A stretch of DNA of 64,000 nt from Methanobacteriota archaeon (GTDB lineage Archaea > Thermoplasmatota > Thermoplasmata > SG8-5 > JAGLSY01), in NCBI GenBank assembly GCA_020697715.1, contig JAEHCO010000003.1:128001-192000 (forward strand), written 5' to 3'. The translations under genes were made by a program, and so were the position numbers. Each line of letters starts with the position of its first letter. Positions within the stretch are counted from its first letter, which is position 1. The notes beneath the pieces are model-generated. The model saw only the letters and a list, made by a program, of their open reading frames with translations. It ran no database searches and was not told the origin of the DNA. This document shows, piece after piece, positions 3,229-63,932 of the stretch.

Positions 3229-4047
3229 TCATCCTGTCCAGGTTTCGAATACCCATTCTACTGAATCCCCATCCTGAAGAACATACTGGCCCGCGCCTAC
3301 AGGTCCGTATTCTCCATCGATATACCATATCCAGTAATAGGCCGAGGTGTCATCGATCCCACCGACCGTGCTTCCTGGTGAGATGCCTTCGATCCCATTG
3401 ACGAACTCGCCCCATCCGAAATCCTGCATATCGAGGCTGTCATATCCAACCGCCTCTTCTAAGGCTCCAAGAGCTGTGTAATTGTCTGTTATCATCGTAT
3501 GGTTCTGATAGGTTCCATTGCCGAAGTTGATTATCACTTCGACAGAGATGCCAGTTTGTTCAAAAACACCACTCGGACCGTCAGCAACTATGAAATTAAC
3601 ATCTATCTCCTGGCCATCATGCACTATGGCGATATCATCCTTCGCGACAAAGGACTCGTTGGTCACTGGAGCCTGAAATCCATCGAAGGAATAGGACCAC
3701 CACATGCTGGCCGTATCCCCTATTCCCTGTACCGTGACATTGTTAGCCACATTGTTAATTGACTCAAGATATGCGACGCCTTCCATGCTGCGTCCCATCT
3801 CGAACATGTCATCTCCGATACTGGCCGCCAGCACTCCAGGAAGCGTGTTATTGGTCGTGGTCACATTGTGCCATTCCACATCCCCATTCCCATAATCGAT
3901 GATCAAAGTCACTGAGATCTCATCGGGATTGATCTCCACTTTATTCATTTCCTGCATGAGAATTATTCCACCGATAGCGGCTCCTATCACCAATGCGACT
4001 ATGACCATGGGCATCCAGCCCAATTCCGCCTTCTCTTCTTCTGCCAA
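3229..4047 (-). CDS. Membrane-anchored protein with two DUF4430/transcobalamin-like beta domains
   Basis: N-terminal TM helix, then two repeats of I(D/N)(Y/F)GNG...(Y/F)..SI..V / GI.GI...WW.Y / YWIWY. Start taken as TTG 4047 after GGAG; ATG 4062 is an alternative. Confidence 0.65.
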   Translation of the reverse strand: MAEEEKAELGWMPMVIVALVIGAAIGGIILMQEMNKVEINPDEISVTLIIDYGNGDVEWHNVTTTNNTLPGVLAASIGDDMFEMGRSMEGVAYLESINNVANNVTVQGIGDTASMWWSYSFDGFQAPVTNESFVAKDDIAIVHDGQEIDVNFIVADGPSGVFEQTGISVEVIINFGNGTYQNHTMITDNYTALGALEEAVGYDSLDMQDFGWGEFVNGIEGISPGSTVGGIDDTSAYYWIWYIDGEYGPVGAGQYVLQDGDSVEWVFETWTG

Positions 4048-4111
4048 TCTGAATCTCTCCATTTCATTCCGAGCTTTTGAATACAATCACTTCGTTCTCG
4101 TATTCAATCAC
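4045..4111 (-). promoter_or_regulatory. Junction cassette (family B), leader-type copy
   Basis: Minus strand TGAATACGAGAACGAAGTGATTGTATTCAAAAGCTCGGAATGAAATGGAGAGATTCAGATTG aligns along its length with 14378-14439. Mini-ORF from GTG 4111 to TGA 4064. Confidence 0.7.
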
Positions 4112-4212
4112 CTTTCCACCTCTTTTCGAGGGGTGGACAATATATCCACCCTAAAGCCCATTGGCTATTAAAGGTTTTTGATTTTATTTGTTAAAACTAT
4201 GTGCTTTTCCGA

Positions 4213-13514: not shown

Positions 13515-13529
13515 TTGAGGTGAGTGATT

Positions 13530-14384
13530 TTGGGAGACCCTAAGTTCAGTAGAAGACGGTATGCTACACCATCACATCCTTGGCAAAAAGAAAGGATAGA
13601 TGAAGAGAATGAGATGATCAGAAAATACGGTCTTAAGAATAAGAAGGAACTCTGGAAGGCACAGTCCCTCCTGAGGAACTTCAGACAGAGATCCAGGATC
13701 CTTCAGGCTCAGATCAGGTATGGTAATAAGCAGGCGGAGAAGGAAAGAGACCAGCTTCTGGCCAGATTAGAACGTGCAGGAATACTCGGTAGCGAGGCTT
13801 CCCTGGATGATGTTCTGGCATTGGATGTTGAGGCTGTACTTACAAGAAGATTGCAGACCCTGGCATACATGAAGGGACTGAGCAACAGTGCGAAACAAGC
13901 CCGCCAGTTCATTGTTCATGGACATGTATCCATCGGAGATAGGAAGGTAACTATTCCCGGTTATTTGGTCAAGAGGACCGAAGAAGAATCCATTGAATAT
14001 CTATTAAGCTCGCCGATAGCGAATGACATGCATCCAGCAAGACCAAAGGATGAATTGGAATTGGCTGAGCAGAAGAGAATGCAGGAAGAGGCCGCCAAGG
14101 CCGCGGAAGCACCAGTTGCCGCACCAGAAGGCGCAGATGCTCCAGCCGTGGAACCAAAACCAGAGGGCGAGGCACCAGCAGCAGAGGTAAAACCCGCAGA
14201 GGCTAAGCCAGCTGAAGCAAAACCTGAACCAAAGGTTGAAGCAGCTCCAGCAAAGGAAAAGCCTGCAGAGGCTAAGCCAGCTGAAGCAAAACCCGAACCA
14301 AAGGTTGAAGCAGCTCCAGCAGAGAAAAAGCCTGCAGAGGCTAAGAAGCCAGCAGAAGATAAACCAAAGGAGGCCAATGAATGA
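13530..14384 (+). CDS. rps4: 30S ribosomal protein uS4 with a long Ala/Glu/Pro/Lys C-terminal tail
   Basis: GDPKFSRRRY.TP.HPW, YGLKNKKELW, RRLQT and ARQFIVHGH. Confidence 0.96.
   Translation: MGDPKFSRRRYATPSHPWQKERIDEENEMIRKYGLKNKKELWKAQSLLRNFRQRSRILQAQIRYGNKQAEKERDQLLARLERAGILGSEASLDDVLALDVEAVLTRRLQTLAYMKGLSNSAKQARQFIVHGHVSIGDRKVTIPGYLVKRTEEESIEYLLSSPIANDMHPARPKDELELAEQKRMQEEAAKAAEAPVAAPEGADAPAVEPKPEGEAPAAEVKPAEAKPAEAKPEPKVEAAPAKEKPAEAKPAEAKPEPKVEAAPAEKKPAEAKKPAEDKPKEANE
14196..14346 (+). repeat. 69-nt tandem repeat (about 2.2 copies) in the uS4 tail
   Basis: GCAGAGGCTAAG begins at 14196, 14265 and 14334; the unit encodes AEAKPAEAKPEPKVEAAPAKEKP. Confidence 0.9.
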
Positions 14385-14440
14385 GCGAATGTAATGAGCG
14401 CATTCATAAGCTCCGATCTCAAGGAGGAGATTCAGAATGA
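14378..14440 (+). promoter_or_regulatory. Junction cassette (family B) with coupled mini-ORF 14381-14440
   Basis: TGAATG/CATTCA stem plus a stem over [27 protein letters not shown] overlaps the rps4 stop (ATGA) and the rps11 start (ATGA). Confidence 0.75.
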
Positions 14441-14820
14441 CCAAATGGGCCCTAGCACACATATACGCATCTTACAACAATATATTGATAACATTGACCG
14501 ACCCAACCGGTGCAGAGACAATTACGAAATGCACTGGAGGTATGGTTGTCAAATCTCAGAAGGATGAATCATCTCCATATGCAGCCATGAAGGCAGCAGA
14601 GATGATCGCCGATATCGCAAAGGAGAGGGGCATCGACAGTGTTCATGTCCGTGTAAGAGCTCCAGGCGGTAACAAAGACCTTTCCCCTGGACCAGGAGCA
14701 CAGGCCGCGATCAGAGCACTGGCAAGGGCGGGTTTGAGAATAGGAAGGATAGAGGATGTAACCCCTATCCCTCACGACGGCACCAAGAAGAAAGGCGGCA
14801 GACGTGGAAGAAGGGTGTAA
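14437..14820 (+). CDS. rps11: 30S ribosomal protein uS11
   Basis: [30 protein letters not shown] and [11 protein letters not shown]. Confidence 0.97.
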
Positions 14821-14824
14821 TCAA

Positions 14825-15889
14825 ATGGATATCAAGATCATTGATATTAAGGACGATTTCATCAAATTCGTCATATCTGGCGTTGACTTCAGCTTTGTGA
14901 ATTCCATCAGAAGGACACTTTTGGCCGATATACCTAAAATGGCCATTGAGGATGTTGAGATCCATCTGGGAGCAATAAGCGATGAGGAGGGTAAGACATA
15001 TGAGAGCACGACCCCTCTTTTCGATGAGATAATCGCTCACAGAATGGGCCTGATACCTATCCCAACAGACCTGGATATGTTGACCTTCAAAGATGAATGT
15101 GATTGCGAAGGTGAAGGATGTGTCAATTGCAGCATCATGTACTCTCTGAATAAGAGGGGGCCATGCACTGTTTACTCTGGTGACCTGGAGCCATTGGGCG
15201 ATCCAAGCCTGAGGCCAAAGGATACCAAGATACCAATAGTCAAGCTTACGGAAGATGAGGGTATCCTTATCTACGCGACCGCCACAATGGGAACTGGTAA
15301 GGGGCATGCGAAATGGCAGGGAATTCATGGTGCTGGCTACAAATTATATCCTACAGTTGACATCGATCCAAAAAAATGTGACAATGGCGGAGGGTGCATA
15401 CCGATATGCCCAGTCAATGTCTTTGTAAAGGAAGGAAAGAAGGTCAAGATGGTCAATACGGAGAACTGCACAATGTGCAATAGCTGTGTGGAGATATGCG
15501 AATTAGGCGCTGTCACCATCGGCCATGAGGAAGATAAGTTCATATTCAGATTCGAGACAGATGGTTCGCTCTATGCAAAGGACGCACTTCTCTATGCAGT
15601 GGCTCACTTAGGAGCATCCTTCGAGGGAGTGATCGACCTTGTTGAAACCATGAAGCCAAAGGAGTACAAACCGATCGAGGCCGTGAAATTGAACTTCGAT
15701 CATGAGGAAAATCCAGAAGGCGTGGCATATATTCCAGCAGGTGAAAGCACTCACGCTCCTGAAGAGGAGACAGAGGAAGAGGAAGAACCTGTTGCTGAGG
15801 AAGAGCCAGTTGTCGAGGAAGAGAAGCCCAAGAAGAAGGCAGCTGCCAAAAAGAAGGCACCTGCAAAGAAAGCAGCCAAAAAGAAATAG
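14825..15889 (+). CDS. rpoD: DNA-directed RNA polymerase subunit D (Rpo3) with ferredoxin domain and charged tail
   Basis: NSIRRTL, DEIIAHRMGLIPI, GKGHAKWQ, Cys-rich ferredoxin insert and FRFETDGS. Confidence 0.95.
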   Translation: MDIKIIDIKDDFIKFVISGVDFSFVNSIRRTLLADIPKMAIEDVEIHLGAISDEEGKTYESTTPLFDEIIAHRMGLIPIPTDLDMLTFKDECDCEGEGCVNCSIMYSLNKRGPCTVYSGDLEPLGDPSLRPKDTKIPIVKLTEDEGILIYATATMGTGKGHAKWQGIHGAGYKLYPTVDIDPKKCDNGGGCIPICPVNVFVKEGKKVKMVNTENCTMCNSCVEICELGAVTIGHEEDKFIFRFETDGSLYAKDALLYAVAHLGASFEGVIDLVETMKPKEYKPIEAVKLNFDHEENPEGVAYIPAGESTHAPEEETEEEEEPVAEEEPVVEEEKPKKKAAAKKKAPAKKAAKKK

Positions 15890-44975: not shown

Positions 44976-46796
44976 ATGATAGACCCCGAGAAAATCGACT
45001 ACAGGAAACTGGGCTTCAAGGCGGGCCTCGAGATACACCATCAGCTCAAGTCCTCCCGGAAGTTATTCTGCCACTGTCCAGCCGAGTTGTCGGCCGACCT
45101 GCAGAAGAACCCGGATTTTACATTCCACAGGCGCTTCAGGGCCGTGATGGGCGAGATGGGGGACTTCGACCCCGGTATGCTGGTCGAAGTTGAAAAGGGC
45201 TATCTGGTCATCTACCATGCGAATGACGCCCATGTGTGCACTTACGAGATGGACGATACTCCTCCATTCTGGCTGGACATGGAATCCGTGGATACTGGTT
45301 ATAAGCTGGCCAGTCTTTTCAATTGCGAGTCGCCAGCCGAGGAAGTTGTCATAAATCGAAAGCAGTACTTGGACGGTTCGATAACCACTGGTTTCCAGCG
45401 TACGATGATAATCGCCAGGGACGGTCATGTGAAGCTTGCCAGTGGCAAGAAGATCACTATCACGAATATCCTTATCGAAGAAGACTCGGCCAGGAAGATC
45501 AAGGCCGAGGATCGCGGTCGAACAGTCTATTACAATCTGGATAGGCTGGGTGTTCCACTTACAGAAATTATAACAGATCACAATGAGATCGACACGCCCG
45601 AGCTTTTAATTGAGGCCATAAAGATGATCGGTATCAATCTCAGATTAACGGGACTGGGTCGTCGCGGTATCGGTGTCGGCAGACAGGATGTGAATATCTC
45701 GATCGATGGTGGTGACAGAGTGGAGTTAAAGGGAGTTCAGGATCTTTCTTTATTGACAAAGTTCTGCGCCCACGAGGTTTGCAGACAGCACGCGCTCATC
45801 GATATTCAATCTAAATTAGCCAGCTTGAATCTGAAGAAGGAAGACTTCGAGCATAATTACATAGATATTACTCATTTATTCAATGATCTGGGTGAGGGAG
45901 AATCAGCCTTCGCGGTCAGGCTGCCCGGTTTTGAGAATATCCTCAAAACCGAAGTCCAGCCAGGCAAGGACTTTGGATATGAGATATTCGAGAAATGCAA
46001 TTTAATTACTGGCATCCTGTACGACGAAATGTTCCATTCGGGCGAGATGAGTCCGGGATCCATTCGCATGATGAACAGGTCGGATGATCTTTTCATCAAT
46101 AAGGGACAGGATGGCGAAATTCGAGCCATCCTGAAACTCGCACCAGGAGATGGATACGTAGCTGCCAGGGGTAGTGAGAAACCAGTTCTCCATACCCTGA
46201 AGAAGACAGTGGAGAGATGCAAGCAGGCCTTTGATGGCGTGCCCCAGGAGACAAGGCGAGTGTTGCCAGATGGTAATAACGAGTTCCTGCGCGTGATCCA
46301 TGGAAAAGGCCGTCTTTACCCGGATACGGACACTCCGCCAGCCCCCTATTCGATGGAGAAATTCCACGCGATAAAGGAAAAGGGCTGGACAAGACCACTT
46401 GACCTTCTCCAGAAATATGAGGAGAAGGGATTGAAATTGCCAATGCTGGAACTTATTATCCGCGATCAGAAGGTTCCATTGTTCCAGAAGTTGGTGGACG
46501 AGGCCAAGGTTCCAGTCTCTCTGGCTATTCGATTGACTGTGGAAATTCCCCGGTGGCTGAGGAGGAAAGGTCATGATTCGGAGATAATCAGCCAATTCAC
46601 AATGATCAGTATTGCTGGCAATGTCATGTCAGGAAAGCTACAGACAAAACACCTGCGCCCGATGATGAAGGAAATATGCATGGCTCCCAAGGAGAACCAG
46701 AGTTCGATAGTGACCAAATGGGTGGATCAGAACAATAAAAAGGATGAAGCGGGCGATGTAAGGGACAAATGGCCAGATGATGCGAGGTGTGTTTGA
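44976..46796 (+). CDS. gatE: Glu-tRNA(Gln) amidotransferase subunit E (divergent)
   Basis: GLEIHHQL, KLFCHC, DGSITTGFQRT, LDRLGVPL.EI, RQDVNISI, RVELKGVQ, GVPQETR and RLYPDTD. Confidence 0.9.
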   Translation: MIDPEKIDYRKLGFKAGLEIHHQLKSSRKLFCHCPAELSADLQKNPDFTFHRRFRAVMGEMGDFDPGMLVEVEKGYLVIYHANDAHVCTYEMDDTPPFWLDMESVDTGYKLASLFNCESPAEEVVINRKQYLDGSITTGFQRTMIIARDGHVKLASGKKITITNILIEEDSARKIKAEDRGRTVYYNLDRLGVPLTEIITDHNEIDTPELLIEAIKMIGINLRLTGLGRRGIGVGRQDVNISIDGGDRVELKGVQDLSLLTKFCAHEVCRQHALIDIQSKLASLNLKKEDFEHNYIDITHLFNDLGEGESAFAVRLPGFENILKTEVQPGKDFGYEIFEKCNLITGILYDEMFHSGEMSPGSIRMMNRSDDLFINKGQDGEIRAILKLAPGDGYVAARGSEKPVLHTLKKTVERCKQAFDGVPQETRRVLPDGNNEFLRVIHGKGRLYPDTDTPPAPYSMEKFHAIKEKGWTRPLDLLQKYEEKGLKLPMLELIIRDQKVPLFQKLVDEAKVPVSLAIRLTVEIPRWLRRKGHDSEIISQFTMISIAGNVMSGKLQTKHLRPMMKEICMAPKENQSSIVTKWVDQNNKKDEAGDVRDKWPDDARCV

Positions 46797-46859
46797 ATGA
46801 AGTCGCCATTGCTCCTCATTCAACTCGAAACCTCCAAAATTATGGAGGTTTCCCAATGA
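46793..46859 (+). promoter_or_regulatory. Junction cassette (family B) with coupled mini-ORF 46797-46859
   Basis: Stems TTGAATGA/TCATTCAA and GAAACCTCCA/TGGAGGTTTC. ORF MKSPLLLIQLETSKIMEVSQ* abuts the gatE stop and overlaps the gatD ATG. Confidence 0.8.
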
Positions 46860-51156: not shown

Positions 51157-53112
51157 ATGACATGGGTAGAATTTTCTTACTTGATACCGATCATACCTTT
51201 CATCGCCTTCCTGATAGTGGCTTTCTTCGGAAATAAGATGAAAGAAGGCGGAGCGCCAGTGACAATTGCAGCTGTCGCTACCACTTTCGTACTATCTGTT
51301 CTGGTATTGTTCGATGTAATTGAGAATGGATCTTATGAGACATCCATGAATTGGATCGCAGGAACTGGTCTGGAGGTTGGTATATACATCGACAGCCTGA
51401 CAGCTCTGATGCTCATCGTGGTCACCTTTGTTTCCCTGATGGTATCGATATACTCTCTGGGTTACATGCATGATGATCCATGCAAGAGGCGTTACTATGC
51501 CGAGATAGCCCTTTTCGTAGGCTCCATGCTCGGTCTGGTACTGGCCAATAATTTCCTATTGATGTTCATCTTCTGGGAATTGGTGGGAGTTTGCTCCTAT
51601 CTTCTCATTGGATTCTGGTATCAGAAACCCGCGGCTGCAAGCGCGGCTAAAAAAGCTTTCCTTGTTACCAGGATAGGAGATGTTCTTTTCCTAACTGGCA
51701 TAGCGATGTTGTATGTGAAGTTCGGAACATTGAACTTTGTTGAATTGGAACATCTAATGGGGCATGATGTCCAGGGACTTCTGCTTCCAGCTCTCCTCCT
51801 GTTCGCAGGAGCGGTTGGAAAGAGTGCGCAGTTCCCATTGCATGTCTGGTTACCAAATGCGATGGAGGGTCCGACCACGGTCAGTGCCCTTATACATGCG
51901 GCCACGATGGTCAAGGCAGGAGTGTATCTGGTAGCCAGATCGTACTTCATTTTGGAGCATGTTCCTGATGCTTTCCTTATTATAGCGATAATCGGAGGGA
52001 TAACAGCTCTCATGGCAGCGACAATGGCGCTTGTCCAGTACGATATCAAAGGCGTGCTGGCATATTCCACCATCAGCCAGCTGGGGTACATGATGCTGGC
52101 TCTTGGAGCCGGGGCTCATGCCTTTGGTTATACCGCTGGTATGTTCCATCTGATGAACCACGCCTTCTTCAAGGCTCTACTCTTCTTGGCAGCTGGCAGT
52201 GTGATACACGCGGTCGGTTCCAATGATATGCGGAAGATGGGTGGTTTGCACAAGCACATGAAGATCACATCGATAACCATGCTGATAGGCTCGCTATCTA
52301 TAGCGGGATTCCCATTTATGAGTGGTTTCTTCAGCAAGGACGAGGTACTTTCATCGGTCTGGCATGCGGCAGCTGATAACAATATCTACTACGTACTGTA
52401 CGCGATGGGAGTGATAACCGCTTTCCTCACAGCCTTCTACATGTTCAGGCTCTGGTATATGACATTCTCCGGAGAACAAAGGGACAAGAGCTATCATCCT
52501 CACGAGTCGCCAAAGACAATGACGATACCACTGATGCTTCTGGCCATATTGGCCGCAGGAGCCGGTTTCTCCTTCTTCTTCGGCTTCCAGGACTTCATTT
52601 ACTTCGGGCACGCACCGCATGTCACTATCGTTCATATGTTCGAGATGTGGCAGACCTGGCTATCAATTGCCGCTGGTCTGGGCGGTATCGGCCTCGCGAC
52701 CCTGGTCTACTATAAGGGAACGATATCACCAAGTACCTTCACCGCAGGACCTGGCAGAAGGGCAGTACGCCATATGCTGGAAATGAAATACTGGATGGAT
52801 GAGATCTACATGGGCATAGCGGAGAAAGGCGTGTACGGTCTATCTCTACTCATGGACAAGTTCGACAGAAATGTCGTGGACGGTGCTATCAATGGTATAT
52901 CCAGTGGTGGTATTGGCCTTGGTCATGCATCCAATGAGTTCGACAAGGGCGTCATAGACGGTGCTGTCAATGGATTGAGCAAGGGCTCTTTCAAGGGCGG
53001 AAAGGCACTCTGGAACCTCCAAAGTGGCAGGGTTCAGGATTATGCCTCGATGATGATATTGGGTGTTTGTGGATTGATTGTCCTTATGATGTTGACGGGG
53101 GTGATCTCTTGA
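51157..53112 (+). CDS. nuoL: Complex I-like antiporter subunit L with extended lateral helix
   Basis: FWELVG.CSYLLIGFW, GKSAQFPLHVWLP.AMEGPT, AYSTISQLGYM and HAFFKALLFL; 26-aa duplication near the C-terminus. Confidence 0.95.
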   Translation: MTWVEFSYLIPIIPFIAFLIVAFFGNKMKEGGAPVTIAAVATTFVLSVLVLFDVIENGSYETSMNWIAGTGLEVGIYIDSLTALMLIVVTFVSLMVSIYSLGYMHDDPCKRRYYAEIALFVGSMLGLVLANNFLLMFIFWELVGVCSYLLIGFWYQKPAAASAAKKAFLVTRIGDVLFLTGIAMLYVKFGTLNFVELEHLMGHDVQGLLLPALLLFAGAVGKSAQFPLHVWLPNAMEGPTTVSALIHAATMVKAGVYLVARSYFILEHVPDAFLIIAIIGGITALMAATMALVQYDIKGVLAYSTISQLGYMMLALGAGAHAFGYTAGMFHLMNHAFFKALLFLAAGSVIHAVGSNDMRKMGGLHKHMKITSITMLIGSLSIAGFPFMSGFFSKDEVLSSVWHAAADNNIYYVLYAMGVITAFLTAFYMFRLWYMTFSGEQRDKSYHPHESPKTMTIPLMLLAILAAGAGFSFFFGFQDFIYFGHAPHVTIVHMFEMWQTWLSIAAGLGGIGLATLVYYKGTISPSTFTAGPGRRAVRHMLEMKYWMDEIYMGIAEKGVYGLSLLMDKFDRNVVDGAINGISSGGIGLGHASNEFDKGVIDGAVNGLSKGSFKGGKALWNLQSGRVQDYASMMILGVCGLIVLMMLTGVIS

Positions 53113-53161
53113 GACTACTGAATCAAGATAAGACCGCAATGAAATGGAGGTCGATATAGTG
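53107..53161 (+). promoter_or_regulatory. Junction cassette (family B) with coupled mini-ORF 53109-53159
   Basis: Stems TCTTGA/TCAAGA and GACC/GGTC (the second covers part of GGAGGT). ORF (TTG)RLLNQDKTAMKWRSI* overlaps the nuoL stop (TTGA) and the nuoM GTG (TAGTG). Confidence 0.7.
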
Positions 53162-62400: not shown

Positions 62401-63869
62401 TCTTCAGGCAGATGTGTGCTGAGGCAGGCCTGAATCCATATCTTTTCGAGATGGTGAACATACGTGATCAGGGTTCATGGGTTCATTTGAATGAGCCCGA
62501 AGCAGCGACCGAGAAGGCCAAGAGTCTGGTCGCGGCCGCGGTTGCCAAGTCCAGATTCCTGAAGCCATTGGTGGCTAGTGAACTGGAAGTCAATCATGAC
62601 GCGCTCGTCATCGGTGGCGGAGTATCCGGTCTCACAGCAGCCACAAGCCTGGCATCTTTGGGATTCAAAGTGAATCTTGTGGAAAAGTCAGATGTTCTCG
62701 GTGGCGCATTGCTGGATAAAGACCTACTGATACCATCCAATGTCAAGGCAAGTGACATGCTGGCCGACCTGATAAAGAAGGCCGGGGACAAAGGAGTGAA
62801 GTTCTTCAAAGAGACCGAGCTCATTGACCTTGAAGGCTTTGTTGGAAACTTCAAGGTCAAAGCCATGCAGAAGGGAACTGAGGAACTTGACTTCGAGGTT
62901 GGAGCAATCATTCTGGCCATAGGTGCGAAACTCTATGAGCCCACAAAGGGCGAGTTCGGTTTCGGATTGCATCCGAACGTCATCACTAACCAGGATCTGG
63001 AAGATCTGATGATGGAGCATCAGGGTGACAAACTCATGCTCAATGGAAAGGAGCTGAAGCGTGTTGCAATGATCCATTGTGTTGGCTCTCGTGACAAGGA
63101 AGGCTTCAAGGACTGTTCCAGATACTGCTGTCAAGTCACCCTCAAGCAGATAGACGAATTGAGGGCTCTGGGCATCGATACCGTGGATTATAACAGGGAC
63201 ATACGTGCCTTCAGCAAGGGAGCGGAGGAATTGTACAGGAAGACCAGAGAGGATGGTACAATGTACATGCGCTACACTCCTGAAGAACTTCCGGAGATCA
63301 TCCCAGATGGTGATGGTGTGAAGATAAGGACCTACGATGCCCTTGTTGGAGCGACTGTCGAATTGCCATTTGACGCTGTTGTTCTATCAGTGGGAATGAG
63401 AGCTCATGAGATAGATGTTAAACATTTGAGAAGCCTGATGAAAGTTCCAATGGGCGCGGATGGCTTCTTCTTAGAAAGCCACCCGAAGCTGGGACCTGTT
63501 GAGACCAATACCGCCGGTATCTATCTTTGTGGAACCGCACAGTTCCCCAAGGACGTGGTCGATACCATCGCTCAGTCATATGGAGCCGCCGCTAAGGCAG
63601 CCACAGTCCTGTCCAAGGACAAGCTCCTGGGTGTTGCCCAGATATCCAGTGTCGATCCTGAACTATGCATAGGTTGTGAGACCTGTATCGATATCTGTCC
63701 TTACAATGCCATCGAGAAGGAGAATGGCAAGGCCAAGGTATTGGAGGCCGTTTGTAAGGGTTGCGGATCATGCGCGGCCGCTTGCAGGAACGGTGCGATA
63801 CAGCAGGCTGGTTTCAGAGATGAATACATTGTTACTATGATAGACAATGCTCTTGAGGAGGTGGAATGA
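59424..63869 (+). CDS. hdrA: Large HdrA (HdrL-type): two HdrA modules with an inserted GltD/NfnB-like NAD(P)H module
   Basis: LDKTFPTNDCSMCIL; insert with GRVCPH.CE..C.R, GSGPAG, GIPEYRLP and YRR; CVGSRD...CSRVCC; VFICHCG; second CVGSRD...CSRYCC; terminal ferredoxin. Confidence 0.92.
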   Translation: MTADKKGVMVIGGGIGGIQSALDLADSGVNVYLVEKGPSVGGRMAQLDKTFPTNDCSMCILSPKLVAAARHPMINLLTMSQVKTLEGEPGNFKATITTHPRYIDISKCVGCGECAKVCPIEMPNEFDVGTATRGATYIPFPQATPLKYSITRHGTPPCEAECPAGVHVQGYVALIAKGKYMEALDLHREFNPLPIICGRVCPHTCESVCNRAEVDEPIAIAHLKRFMAAYEMDNRDEPVEPFDQTDGKTVAIIGSGPAGLTAAYYLARHGHKPTIYEALPVAGGMLRVGIPEYRLPRDLLQAEIDYIKAKGVDIQLNKRLGTDIMLDDLKKDFDAVFLAIGSHVSKSMRVTAEDTPGVIPGVDFLRDVNLGKEVQLGNKVAVVGGGDVAIDAVRVAHRLGKEAFMIYRRTRNEMPAHETEIIDTEEEGIDIKFLTQPVRVVETGGKVSGIECVRMELGEPDDSGRRRPVPVEGSEFIIEVDNIIPAIGQDSDVEYLKKAGISTTDWKTIVACEETYMTSDEGVFAAGDAVSGPWTVVGAVGGAKKAADAINSYLLGEDFPMECKLQDVITFEDLMLEKKLETAPRACVDTLDVEQRECNFKEVVGQLTEAQAVAEAERCLACGGCSGCWQCIGACEADAIDFSQEEYETEVDIGSVVVATGFDLIDAGFRPEYNYENFDNVITGIEFERYLSASGPTSGHLIRPKDHKSPKKIAFIQCVGSRDEHYGCAYCSRVCCMYAIKEAMLIRGHDKDVEDITIFFMDIRAFGKGFEQYYERAKDENINFSRSRPSHFIEDPETGDVLIQTEDTETGEISEYRADLVILSSAMVPSKGTDELAEKLGVELNESGFFKEGETDNIPLETTRPGIYSCGCSSGPKDIPDTVSQASGAAAKAGEWVKDYRSAPEKKDITPVDPYGKPRIGVFICHCGLNIGGTIDVVDVAKFAKELPYVEYTDANVYTCSENTQGEIQDLIHSEKLNRVVIASCSPRTHEPIFRQMCAEAGLNPYLFEMVNIRDQGSWVHLNEPEAATEKAKSLVAAAVAKSRFLKPLVASELEVNHDALVIGGGVSGLTAATSLASLGFKVNLVEKSDVLGGALLDKDLLIPSNVKASDMLADLIKKAGDKGVKFFKETELIDLEGFVGNFKVKAMQKGTEELDFEVGAIILAIGAKLYEPTKGEFGFGLHPNVITNQDLEDLMMEHQGDKLMLNGKELKRVAMIHCVGSRDKEGFKDCSRYCCQVTLKQIDELRALGIDTVDYNRDIRAFSKGAEELYRKTREDGTMYMRYTPEELPEIIPDGDGVKIRTYDALVGATVELPFDAVVLSVGMRAHEIDVKHLRSLMKVPMGADGFFLESHPKLGPVETNTAGIYLCGTAQFPKDVVDTIAQSYGAAAKAATVLSKDKLLGVAQISSVDPELCIGCETCIDICPYNAIEKENGKAKVLEAVCKGCGSCAAACRNGAIQQAGFRDEYIVTMIDNALEEVE

Positions 63870-63932
63870 ATGAGTTCATTTACATTCACCATTCATTTCG
63901 ACACCTCCAAAATTATGGAGGTGCAGTAGATG
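63863..63932 (+). promoter_or_regulatory. Junction cassette (family B) with coupled mini-ORF 63870-63929
   Basis: Stems GGAATGAATG/CATTCATTTC and CACCTCCA/TGGAGGTG. ORF MSSFTFTIHFDTSKIMEVQ* abuts the hdrA stop and the mvhD ATG. Confidence 0.8.

Follow-up and report, generated by a model that had tools for sequence, protein, structure and literature searches.

The genes rps4 and rps11, which encode the ribosomal proteins S4 and S11, are neighbours on the forward strand of a 64,000-nt stretch of a Methanobacteriota archaeon genome (assembly GCA_020697715.1, contig JAEHCO010000003.1, positions 128,001 to 192,000). This stretch is referred to as the window, and positions without a contig label are window positions. 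Between the two genes lies a small cassette, which carries a short open reading frame (mini-ORF) linked to the genes on both sides (Table 1). The last rps4 codons and the rps4 stop codon TGA (14382–14384) are now provided by the 5′ end of the cassette; in sister genomes, rps4 ends with ...KE* at an ATGA overlap. The ATG of the mini-ORF at 14381 overlaps the rps4 stop (ATGA), and its own TGA (14438–14440) overlaps the rps11 ATG at 14437. The original ribosome-binding site (RBS) of rps11, the Shine–Dalgarno (SD) sequence SD1, is also found in the empty sites of the genomes G001 to G004 and is now positioned 7 nt upstream of the mini-ORF ATG. A GAATGA direct repeat, by which a first-pass annotation had seen the spacer bounded, is located at 14379–14384 and 14435–14440. 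In the minimum-energy fold of this copy (z −2.7), both the rps4 stop and the ATG of the mini-ORF lie within hairpin 1, and the downstream GGAGG (SD2) is mostly found in a loop. Stem 2 is ambiguous here because this fold pairs the anti-SD sequence GCUCC with the upstream SD and not with SD2.

Table 1. Features of the rps4/rps11 junction and further cassettes of the window (SD, Shine–Dalgarno sequence; CDS, coding sequence)
Feature	Positions	Strand	Evidence or state of the site
rps4 CDS	13524..14384	+	ORF; Pfam S4
SD1 GGAGG, original rps11 RBS within the rps4 3′ end	14369..14373	+	sequence
Hairpin 1, arms 14377–14383 / 14401–14407, inner pairs 14385–86/14398–99	14377..14407	+	minimum-energy fold
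Inserted 56-nt cassette, diverged repeat-family member	14378..14433	+	filled/empty alignment; covariance-model E 1.9e-13
Mini-ORF, 19 codons + TGA, ATGA overlaps at both ends	14381..14440	+	sequence; genome-wide relay scans
Anti-SD GCTCC within the mini-ORF, able to pair with SD1 or SD2	14410..14414	+	fold pairs anti-SD with SD1
SD2 GGAGG, new rps11 RBS supplied by the cassette	14423..14427	+	sequence; not in empty sites
rps11 CDS	14437..14820	+	ORF; Pfam Ribosomal_S11
gatE/gatD cassette, ~60 nt	46790..46859	+	empty in G003 (TAA-GTG junction)
nuoL/nuoM cassette, 50-nt insertion 53107–53156	53107..53159	+	empty in G003 and G001 (TAGTG)
hdrA-like/mvhD cassette, 60-nt insertion 63867–63926	63867..63929	+	empty in G003 and G001 (TAG-ATG and TAATG)
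Fifth cassette, canonical family copy, before a minus-strand gene without upstream co-directional gene	4040..4114	−	

The spacer between rps4 and rps11 arose recently, by insertion of one copy of a repeated cassette. It is absent from the loci of 19 out of 19 relatives, all of which have a short uninterrupted junction. The four genomes of the same family (G001 to G004) read ...GGAGG..AAGAATGACC with a plain ATGA overlap. These sites are the exact product of removing 14378–14433, and the ordinary ATGA junction that the first-pass annotation had expected after deletion of the spacer and one repeat thus exists in four genomes. The alignment with G003, the closest sister genome, revealed a clean insertion with zero shared letters at the edges. 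The insertions at the hdrA-like/mvhD and nuoL/nuoM junctions are similarly clean (0–1 shared nt for these two and rps), two other sites share 5–7 nt at the edges, and a few nucleotides are replaced at several sites. The insertion point lies 1–3 nt before the start codon, and the gene's own SD stays behind on the upstream side, ahead of what is now the mini-ORF ATG. The cassette gives the upstream gene a new TGA; the original stop codon of that gene stays at the 3′ edge and terminates the mini-ORF.

Short-word BLAST detected a paralogue of the rps spacer on another contig (28 of 32 nt identical, with a similar mini-ORF) and a nearly identical hairpin 2 in the gatE/gatD and hdrA-like/mvhD cassettes (24 of 25 nt). 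An iterated nhmmer search converged at 50 matches in the 2.12-Mb genome, some of which are a single palindrome matched on both strands or successive units of a tandem array; among the matches, the rps spacer was recovered as a diverged member (E 4e-10). The nuoL/nuoM spacer was missed by the profiles, yet its hairpin-2 core is common to many copies. A strict anti-SD/SD pattern scan recovered only the gatE/gatD and hdrA-like/mvhD copies and one unrelated site. The consensus of 31 aligned complete copies contains a hairpin 1 of 12 pairs around a TGA-ATG motif and a hairpin 2 of 5 pairs, in which the anti-SD is bound to the 3′ part of a GGAG-type SD. In this alignment, 93.2% of the paired cells are complementary compared with 74.8% in shuffles. 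Changes on both sides were observed at 16 of the 17 pairs (12/12 in hairpin 1, 4/5 in hairpin 2), and the covariation score was 0.565, compared with 0.214 in shuffles (0 of 500 reached 0.565) and at most 0.111 in controls with slid partners. The alignment has 31 G-U cells versus 6 A-C cells (12 versus 5 without the most G-U-rich column), which favours a structure on the sense strand. The stem postulated over the stop/start junction is supported both by the minimum-energy fold of the rps copy and by the covarying hairpin 1 of the family. All four junction spacers belong to one two-hairpin repeat superfamily; the separate "Family B" to which they had been assigned consists of diverged members of this larger group.

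The cassette is a lineage-specific, non-coding repeat present in tens of copies per genome. With at most 150 candidates scored per genome in 31 genomes, the covariance model yielded 54 matches with E ≤ 0.01 in this genome (G000); the three genomes of the same genus had 79, 47, and 57, and the sister genus had 36. Two to five matches were obtained in each of four genomes of another family, single weak matches (E 0.001–0.003) in two further genomes, and zero in the remaining 20. At E ≤ 1e-5, the counts in the 22 genomes of the order were 42, 47, 35, 62, and 32 in five genomes, 2–4 in four, and none in 13. Among the species representatives, only three assemblies, each labelled as an uncultured Thermoplasmata or Methanobacteriota archaeon, contained the exact hairpin-1 pattern, in a total of 15 stretches; the pattern gave one match among metagenome contigs and zero among viral contigs. 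The Rfam search returned only a tRNA in the window, and the best values around the cassette (E 0.21 and 2.6) are far below the gathering scores. A search of sequencing runs brought up no RNA run and one DNA run with a small share of matching words, whose contigs were short pieces of relatives, none of which extended across the rps4/rps11 junction.

Each nhmmer profile match immediately precedes a gene of its own strand, in sense orientation. In this genome, 31 of the 35 complete units have a start codon 6–22 nt after SD2 that opens a frame of 40 codons or more. The statement of the first-pass annotation that the spacers sit between subunits of one complex holds for the four named junctions but not for the family, since 33 of 85 complete copies from five genomes precede genes without an upstream co-directional gene. 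The downstream genes have no common function and encode ribosomal proteins (L39e, S6e, L10e, S8e, L3, S11), NAC, the proteasome alpha subunit, ATP synthase B, the large subunit of a NiFe hydrogenase, and a NuoE-like protein. Junction copies may further be hosted by ATP synthase A/B, by transketolase halves, and by subunits of hydrogenase; this is our own reading and is not confirmed for both genes of each pair.

Orthologous junctions in sister genomes comprise both filled and empty sites. A comparison of 23 cassette loci of G003, whose flanks are ~84–95% identical to those of this genome, resolved 22 sites, of which 15 are empty in this genome and 7 are filled in both. In four of these 7, the two genomes have different numbers or types of units. 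At the three shared sites with a single unit, the cassettes are 95%, 72%, and 57% identical, compared with 84–95% for the flanks. Copies within the genome have a mean identity of 65% and a maximum of 91%. The nearest paralogue of the rps copy reaches 72%, its best full-length matches in the four same-family genomes 77–83%, and a single match 92% over the hairpin-1 part only. The modules look reshuffled, with no donor evident. As evidenced by insertion, turnover, and sense orientation, the cassette is mobile, inserts at start codons, and supplies a replacement RBS. The tiny mobile start-codon element proposed by the first-pass annotation is thus borne out by the empty sister sites, the multiple copies, and the polymorphism between genomes.

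The integrity of the mini-ORF depends on the context, namely on an upstream gene that ends at the cassette. A mini-ORF was regarded as intact if an ATG-started frame ended within −9 to +5 nt of the gene start. The upstream junction was classified as tight if the stop codon of a co-directional ORF was located −9 to +3 nt from the mini-ORF ATG, and as near if it was 10–42 nt upstream. From the 85 complete units, which include only the best-scoring loci of the sister genomes, 68 could be evaluated; the other 17 were dropped because the script found no downstream start. Tight-junction copies have an intact mini-ORF in 28 of 29 cases, near-junction copies in 6 of 12, and copies without an upstream ORF in 1 of 27 (4 of 27 when TTG and GTG are also accepted as starts). 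Fisher's test for both junction classes against the last one (34/41 vs 1/27) gave p = 2.6e-11. The tight, near, and upstream-free classes have 12/13, 0/3, and 0/15 intact frames in this genome, 10/10, 1/3, and 0/7 in G003, and 6/6, 5/6, and 1/5 in G001, G002, and G004 taken together. The contrast is kept among G003 copies that are absent from this genome (9/10 vs 0/3, p = 0.014), and a younger age of the junction copies is therefore not an obvious explanation. Among the copies open to SD2, a stop codon in the arriving frame lies between SD2 and the start codon in 24 of 34 cases, whereas 11 are expected for a random frame. Across the whole genome, short doubly coupled frames preceded by an SD were detected at 31 of 1727 gene ends. 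Fourteen of them were flagged as family members, the nuoL/nuoM copy is one more, and most of the others have 8–12 codons. A scan without the SD requirement was too permissive and gave 93 doubly coupled frames, many of them inside genes.

The spacers and coupled mini-ORFs of 16–20 amino acids that had been described at four junctions of the window are present at all four, where the Pfam matches agree with the gene names. The gatE/gatD mini-ORF (46797–46859, 20 amino acids) has an abutting TGA-ATG at one end and an ATGA overlap at the other. The nuoL/nuoM mini-ORF (53109–53159, 16 amino acids) begins with TTG and ends at the original TAG, which overlaps the GTG start. The third one (63870–63929, 19 amino acids) connects a gene for a 1491-amino-acid HdrA-like flavoprotein with mvhD (Pfam FlpD), whose ATG is at 63930. 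The claim that stem 2 pairs with the downstream SD holds for two of the four copies. The SD is fully paired in the gatE/gatD copy (arms 46827–46835 / 46844–46852, fold z −5.7) and in the hdrA-like/mvhD copy (arms 63902–63908 / 63917–63923, fold z −3.9), but the rps copy is ambiguous and the nuoL/nuoM fold is not better than its shuffles (z −1.2). The mini-ORF of the fifth cassette is broken (6 codons, TTG start). At the gatD start (46856) and at locus L086, the downstream gene begins with ATG when the site is filled and with GTG when it is empty. As judged from these two filled/empty pairs, the cassette may sometimes supply the start codon, too.

Several further arrangements were observed outside the window. 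Mosaic arrays of two or three hairpin modules precede single genes at C28:60843–61012, C30:69252–69417, C11:655914–656043, C29:112664–112791, and C31:61577–61704; the internal "hairpin 2" modules of these arrays have no SD (TTCGAA-type palindromes). Two tandem units of ~36 nt with an SD-like core each, which may represent another related repeat type, form a doubly coupled frame of 35 codons between two genes at C29:143410–143519 (minus strand). In another taxonomic family, a junction with a cassette and an intact relay frame was found in L055 (G020, near 1501–1577) and L056 (G019, near 964–1041). The C-terminal residues of the ORF upstream resemble those of the ORF before the cassette at C11:819803 of this genome, and the junction is also filled in G003. 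We read this ORF as a transketolase, a name that was not confirmed by Pfam. The copy at this junction is either old or marks a recurrent target. Next to the rps4/rps11 cassette itself, the C-terminus of rps4 is extended by ~100 amino acids of Ala/Lys/Pro/Glu-rich repeats (14030–14380, plus strand), and the rps4 genes of relatives have extensions at the same place that differ in sequence and length. An RpoD-like ORF downstream of rps11 (14804–15889, plus strand) ends with a long Glu/Lys-rich tail.

On balance, we favour the view that this mobile, RBS-replacing cassette contains a mini-ORF that relays coupling by termination and reinitiation, and we regard this as likely, though not certain. The tiny frame probably hands ribosomes from one gene to the next, as suggested by its layout and its pattern of conservation. 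The cassette inserts 1–3 nt before the start codon in sense orientation and leaves the original SD upstream; its parts follow in the order TGA-ATG motif within the covarying hairpin, short open frame, anti-SD/SD hairpin, and new SD. In the proposed relay, a ribosome finishing the upstream gene would already have melted hairpin 1 and would reinitiate at the adjoining or overlapping ATG of the mini-ORF. Translation of the mini-ORF through the anti-SD arm would free SD2, and the ribosome would terminate on or beside the downstream start codon and reinitiate there. The stop/start coupling of two subunit genes would thereby be kept despite an insertion of 50–60 nt, which would otherwise abolish it. 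According to excerpts of one study (PMC10666635), a spacer of ~20 nt nearly abolishes termination–reinitiation in Haloferax and E. coli, and overlapping gene pairs are enriched for subunits of heteromeric complexes. The hosts rps4/rps11, gatE/gatD, nuoL/M, and HdrA-like/MvhD match the enrichment described in these excerpts. The coupling device that the first-pass annotation had offered as an alternative to a mobile element gains indirect support from the intact, doubly coupled mini-ORFs, which occur almost exclusively at cassettes where an upstream gene ends; translation of the mini-ORF and the relay as such are inferred. The two proposals are not alternatives; both appear to hold.

Several observations weigh against this relay or against the strength of the evidence for it. 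Because of the common descent of the copies and the orthology of some sites, the Fisher p-values overstate independence. A first, narrower criterion (upstream stop −9 to +3 nt) gave no contrast in the replicate genomes (6/11 vs 6/15, p = 0.69). On inspection of these copies, the upstream genes were found to end 12–26 nt before the mini-ORF; since the junction criterion was widened after this inspection, the final contrast is partly post hoc. Some copies have no ATG at all in hairpin 1. A donor with at least 90% full-length identity to the rps copy was found neither in this genome nor in the four same-family genomes, and neither a transposase partner nor a terminal inverted repeat nor a consistent target duplication could be found for the cassette. 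Other points of this kind also speak for a purely selfish small repeat, that is, a mobile sequence with a replacement SD, in which the mini-ORF is a dispensable by-product and the downstream gene is initiated directly at SD2. The tight-junction copy at C11:477416 lacks an ATG, and its frame spans just 5 codons. Since the original stop codon is kept at the 3′ edge, the double coupling is partly inherited from the old junction. SD2 is unsequestered in the minimum-energy fold of the rps copy, and direct initiation of rps11 may therefore need no relay; canonical copies also have a short hairpin 2, of 5 pairs. Furthermore, the mini-ORF is broken or read through in 26 of the 27 copies without an upstream gene, yet these copies persist, and the peptides vary, with seemingly synonymous changes that are in fact compensatory changes in the stems. 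We nevertheless consider a purely selfish repeat unlikely, because the frame is intact almost throughout the tight junctions and almost nowhere in the absence of an upstream gene, with the same direction in three genome sets and among the G003 copies absent from this genome, a pattern that is not predicted by neutral decay alone. The excess of stop codons between SD2 and the start codon likewise argues against it.

A different origin, as a non-mobile cis-regulatory RNA leader of the host that controls a highly expressed regulon (e.g., a protein-binding or temperature-sensitive SD switch), would account for the strong covariation favouring the sense strand, for the sense orientation of every copy before a gene, for downstream genes such as those of ribosomal proteins, NAC, the proteasome, and ATP synthase, and for an anti-SD able to pair with either SD. 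The putative transketolase junction, which is filled in two taxonomic families, fits such a leader as well. However, presence differs at 15 of the 22 resolved sites between genomes with closely similar flanks, the four window junctions are filled in this genome and empty in the sister genomes compared, and orthologous filled sites can hold different variants. Together with the lack of a common function among the downstream genes and of a matching Rfam family, this makes an RNA leader improbable. A functional micropeptide could be suspected from the pattern M-R-E-x-S-D-C-I-Q-K...K-W-R that recurs in many copies. This likeness follows, however, from nucleotide identity in the hairpin stems, frames and lengths differ between subfamilies, loop indels are not multiples of three, and most copies that lack an upstream gene have lost the frame. 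Because the apparently synonymous changes are compensatory changes in the stems, the peptide itself is not conserved, and we give a coding role hardly any credence. A chance combination of hairpins with a short frame in what is otherwise an ordinary spacer might be invoked, given that 17 of the 31 SD-preceded, doubly coupled frames went without a family flag (the diverged nuoL/nuoM member among them) and that most of these 17 have 8–12 codons. For the rps cassette, this is refuted by the covariance-model match, the absence from the loci of 19 relatives, and the covariation of the hairpins, so that coincidence is practically negligible as an explanation.

In its kind, the cassette ranks with the known small RBS-bearing dispersed repeats; its start-codon target and its context-dependent relay mini-ORF are unusual among them. 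Like its closest described counterparts among repeats, the Neisseria REP2 (CREN) and Borrelia IR elements, it is a dispersed repeat without terminal inverted repeats and with two internal stem-loops, and it has an RBS and an ATG upstream of an ORF. REP2-type repeats contain two internal stem-loops and an RBS and ATG immediately upstream of an ORF, and they carry a promoter, according to the portion of the text drawn on here (Delihas 2011, PMC3184786). The comparison was made by description, and the likeness is that of an archaeal to a bacterial analogue. In contrast to REP2, the cassette has no promoter-like sequence evident by eye (no promoter scan was made), measures 50–60 nt, resides in operons at stop/start junctions, contains a complete mini-ORF ending at the gene start, and occurs in filled and empty sites between sister genomes.

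The cassette shares with MITEs (miniature inverted-repeat transposable elements) and with repetitive extragenic palindromic sequences and bacterial interspersed mosaic elements (REP/BIME) that it is short, non-coding, multi-copy, hairpin-forming, lineage-specific, and co-transcribed with genes. Presence/absence polymorphism is a further likeness to classical MITEs, and imperfect palindromes that occur singly and in mosaic arrays such as those on C28 and C30 are a likeness to REP/BIME. Unlike those of a classical MITE, the cassette ends (5′ TGAATGAG..., 3′ ...GGAG plus 3–6 nt) are not mutual inverted copies as judged by eye, the inverted repeats being the internal hairpins, and a fixed-length target-site duplication is missing. 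Moreover, in contrast to MITEs and REP sequences, all copies among the nhmmer matches are in sense orientation before a gene, most of them right at the start codon. In the searched text of a 2024 MITE review, the terms "ribosome binding," "Shine," and "start codon" are absent.

A Y1 transposase, as in REP/BIME systems with their REP-associated tyrosine transposase (RAYT), was considered as the mover and rejected. The single PF01797 gene of this genome (C1:16359–16709, minus strand, locus L097) is of the IS200 type, and its flanks contain hairpins of their own that are unrelated to the cassette hairpin. The Y1 transposase is thus not flanked by cassette repeats, nor is it co-distributed with them: it is found in 18 of 31 relatives, many of which have no cassette, and it was not found in the cassette-bearing G002 and G004 (74–83% complete). 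IS200/IS605-derived palindromes differ from the cassette in that a conserved tetra- or pentanucleotide left flank is absent from the latter; the left flanks of the insertions vary (..CCAA, ..GGAA, ..GATC) without a conserved motif. A search for the TnpB domain PF07282 as a possible partner gave no match.

With regard to translation, the empty sites are archaeal overlaps for termination–reinitiation (ATGA, TAGTG, TAG-ATG) between subunit genes, whereas the filled sites have two overlaps with a frame of 16–20 codons in between. A short ORF in the attI1 region of integrons is known to enhance the translation of cassettes without an RBS. The layout of the filled sites is that of their closest functional analogue, the engineered bicistronic design (BCD), in which SD1 precedes a short leader that contains SD2 and whose stop overlaps the target start; it is present at rps4/rps11 and in 28 of 29 tight-junction copies. 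In the BCD, the translating ribosome unfolds the structure around SD2, as stated in an excerpt of PMC6302717, and an intergenic small ORF of Salmonella promotes translation of the downstream gene, as stated in an excerpt of PMC8092293. The BCD is engineered and static, whereas the cassette is natural, mobile, and multi-copy, and its leader is also coupled to the stop codon of the upstream gene. The resemblance lies in how the relay would work and not in ancestry. No description of such a cassette was found in the literature searched, which covered few subscription journals and did not extend to supplementary files.

Taken further, and put forward here only tentatively, the cassette could be a self-compensating mobile element that homes before start codons without terminal inverted repeats or target duplication. 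A built-in relay of stop codon, start codon masked by a hairpin, mini-ORF, and anti-SD/SD switch would have evolved that allows it to reside between subunit genes of essential operons with the coupling unbroken. As variants could replace one another at each site, the initiation regions of core genes would form a modular layer that evolves quickly in these archaea.

The common view of small dispersed repeats is that of passengers between genes. The family described here sits at start sites, the most sensitive nucleotides of a gene, and replaces the RBS, also inside operons for ribosomal proteins, ATP synthase, hydrogenase, and complex-I-like enzymes. The start-codon-proximal, strictly oriented insertion is unexplained by the transposases found, and its mechanism may be new. 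If the relay is real, the cassette would be a mobile equivalent, of natural origin, to the engineered bicistronic design, and would show how translational coupling can be left undisturbed, or even aided, by a parasite-like element. The copies with intact or broken frames and with one or two hairpins would then provide a natural set of variants for the rules of archaeal termination–reinitiation. For genome annotation, the cassettes explain the odd gaps of 50–60 nt in the otherwise tightly packed operons of this lineage.

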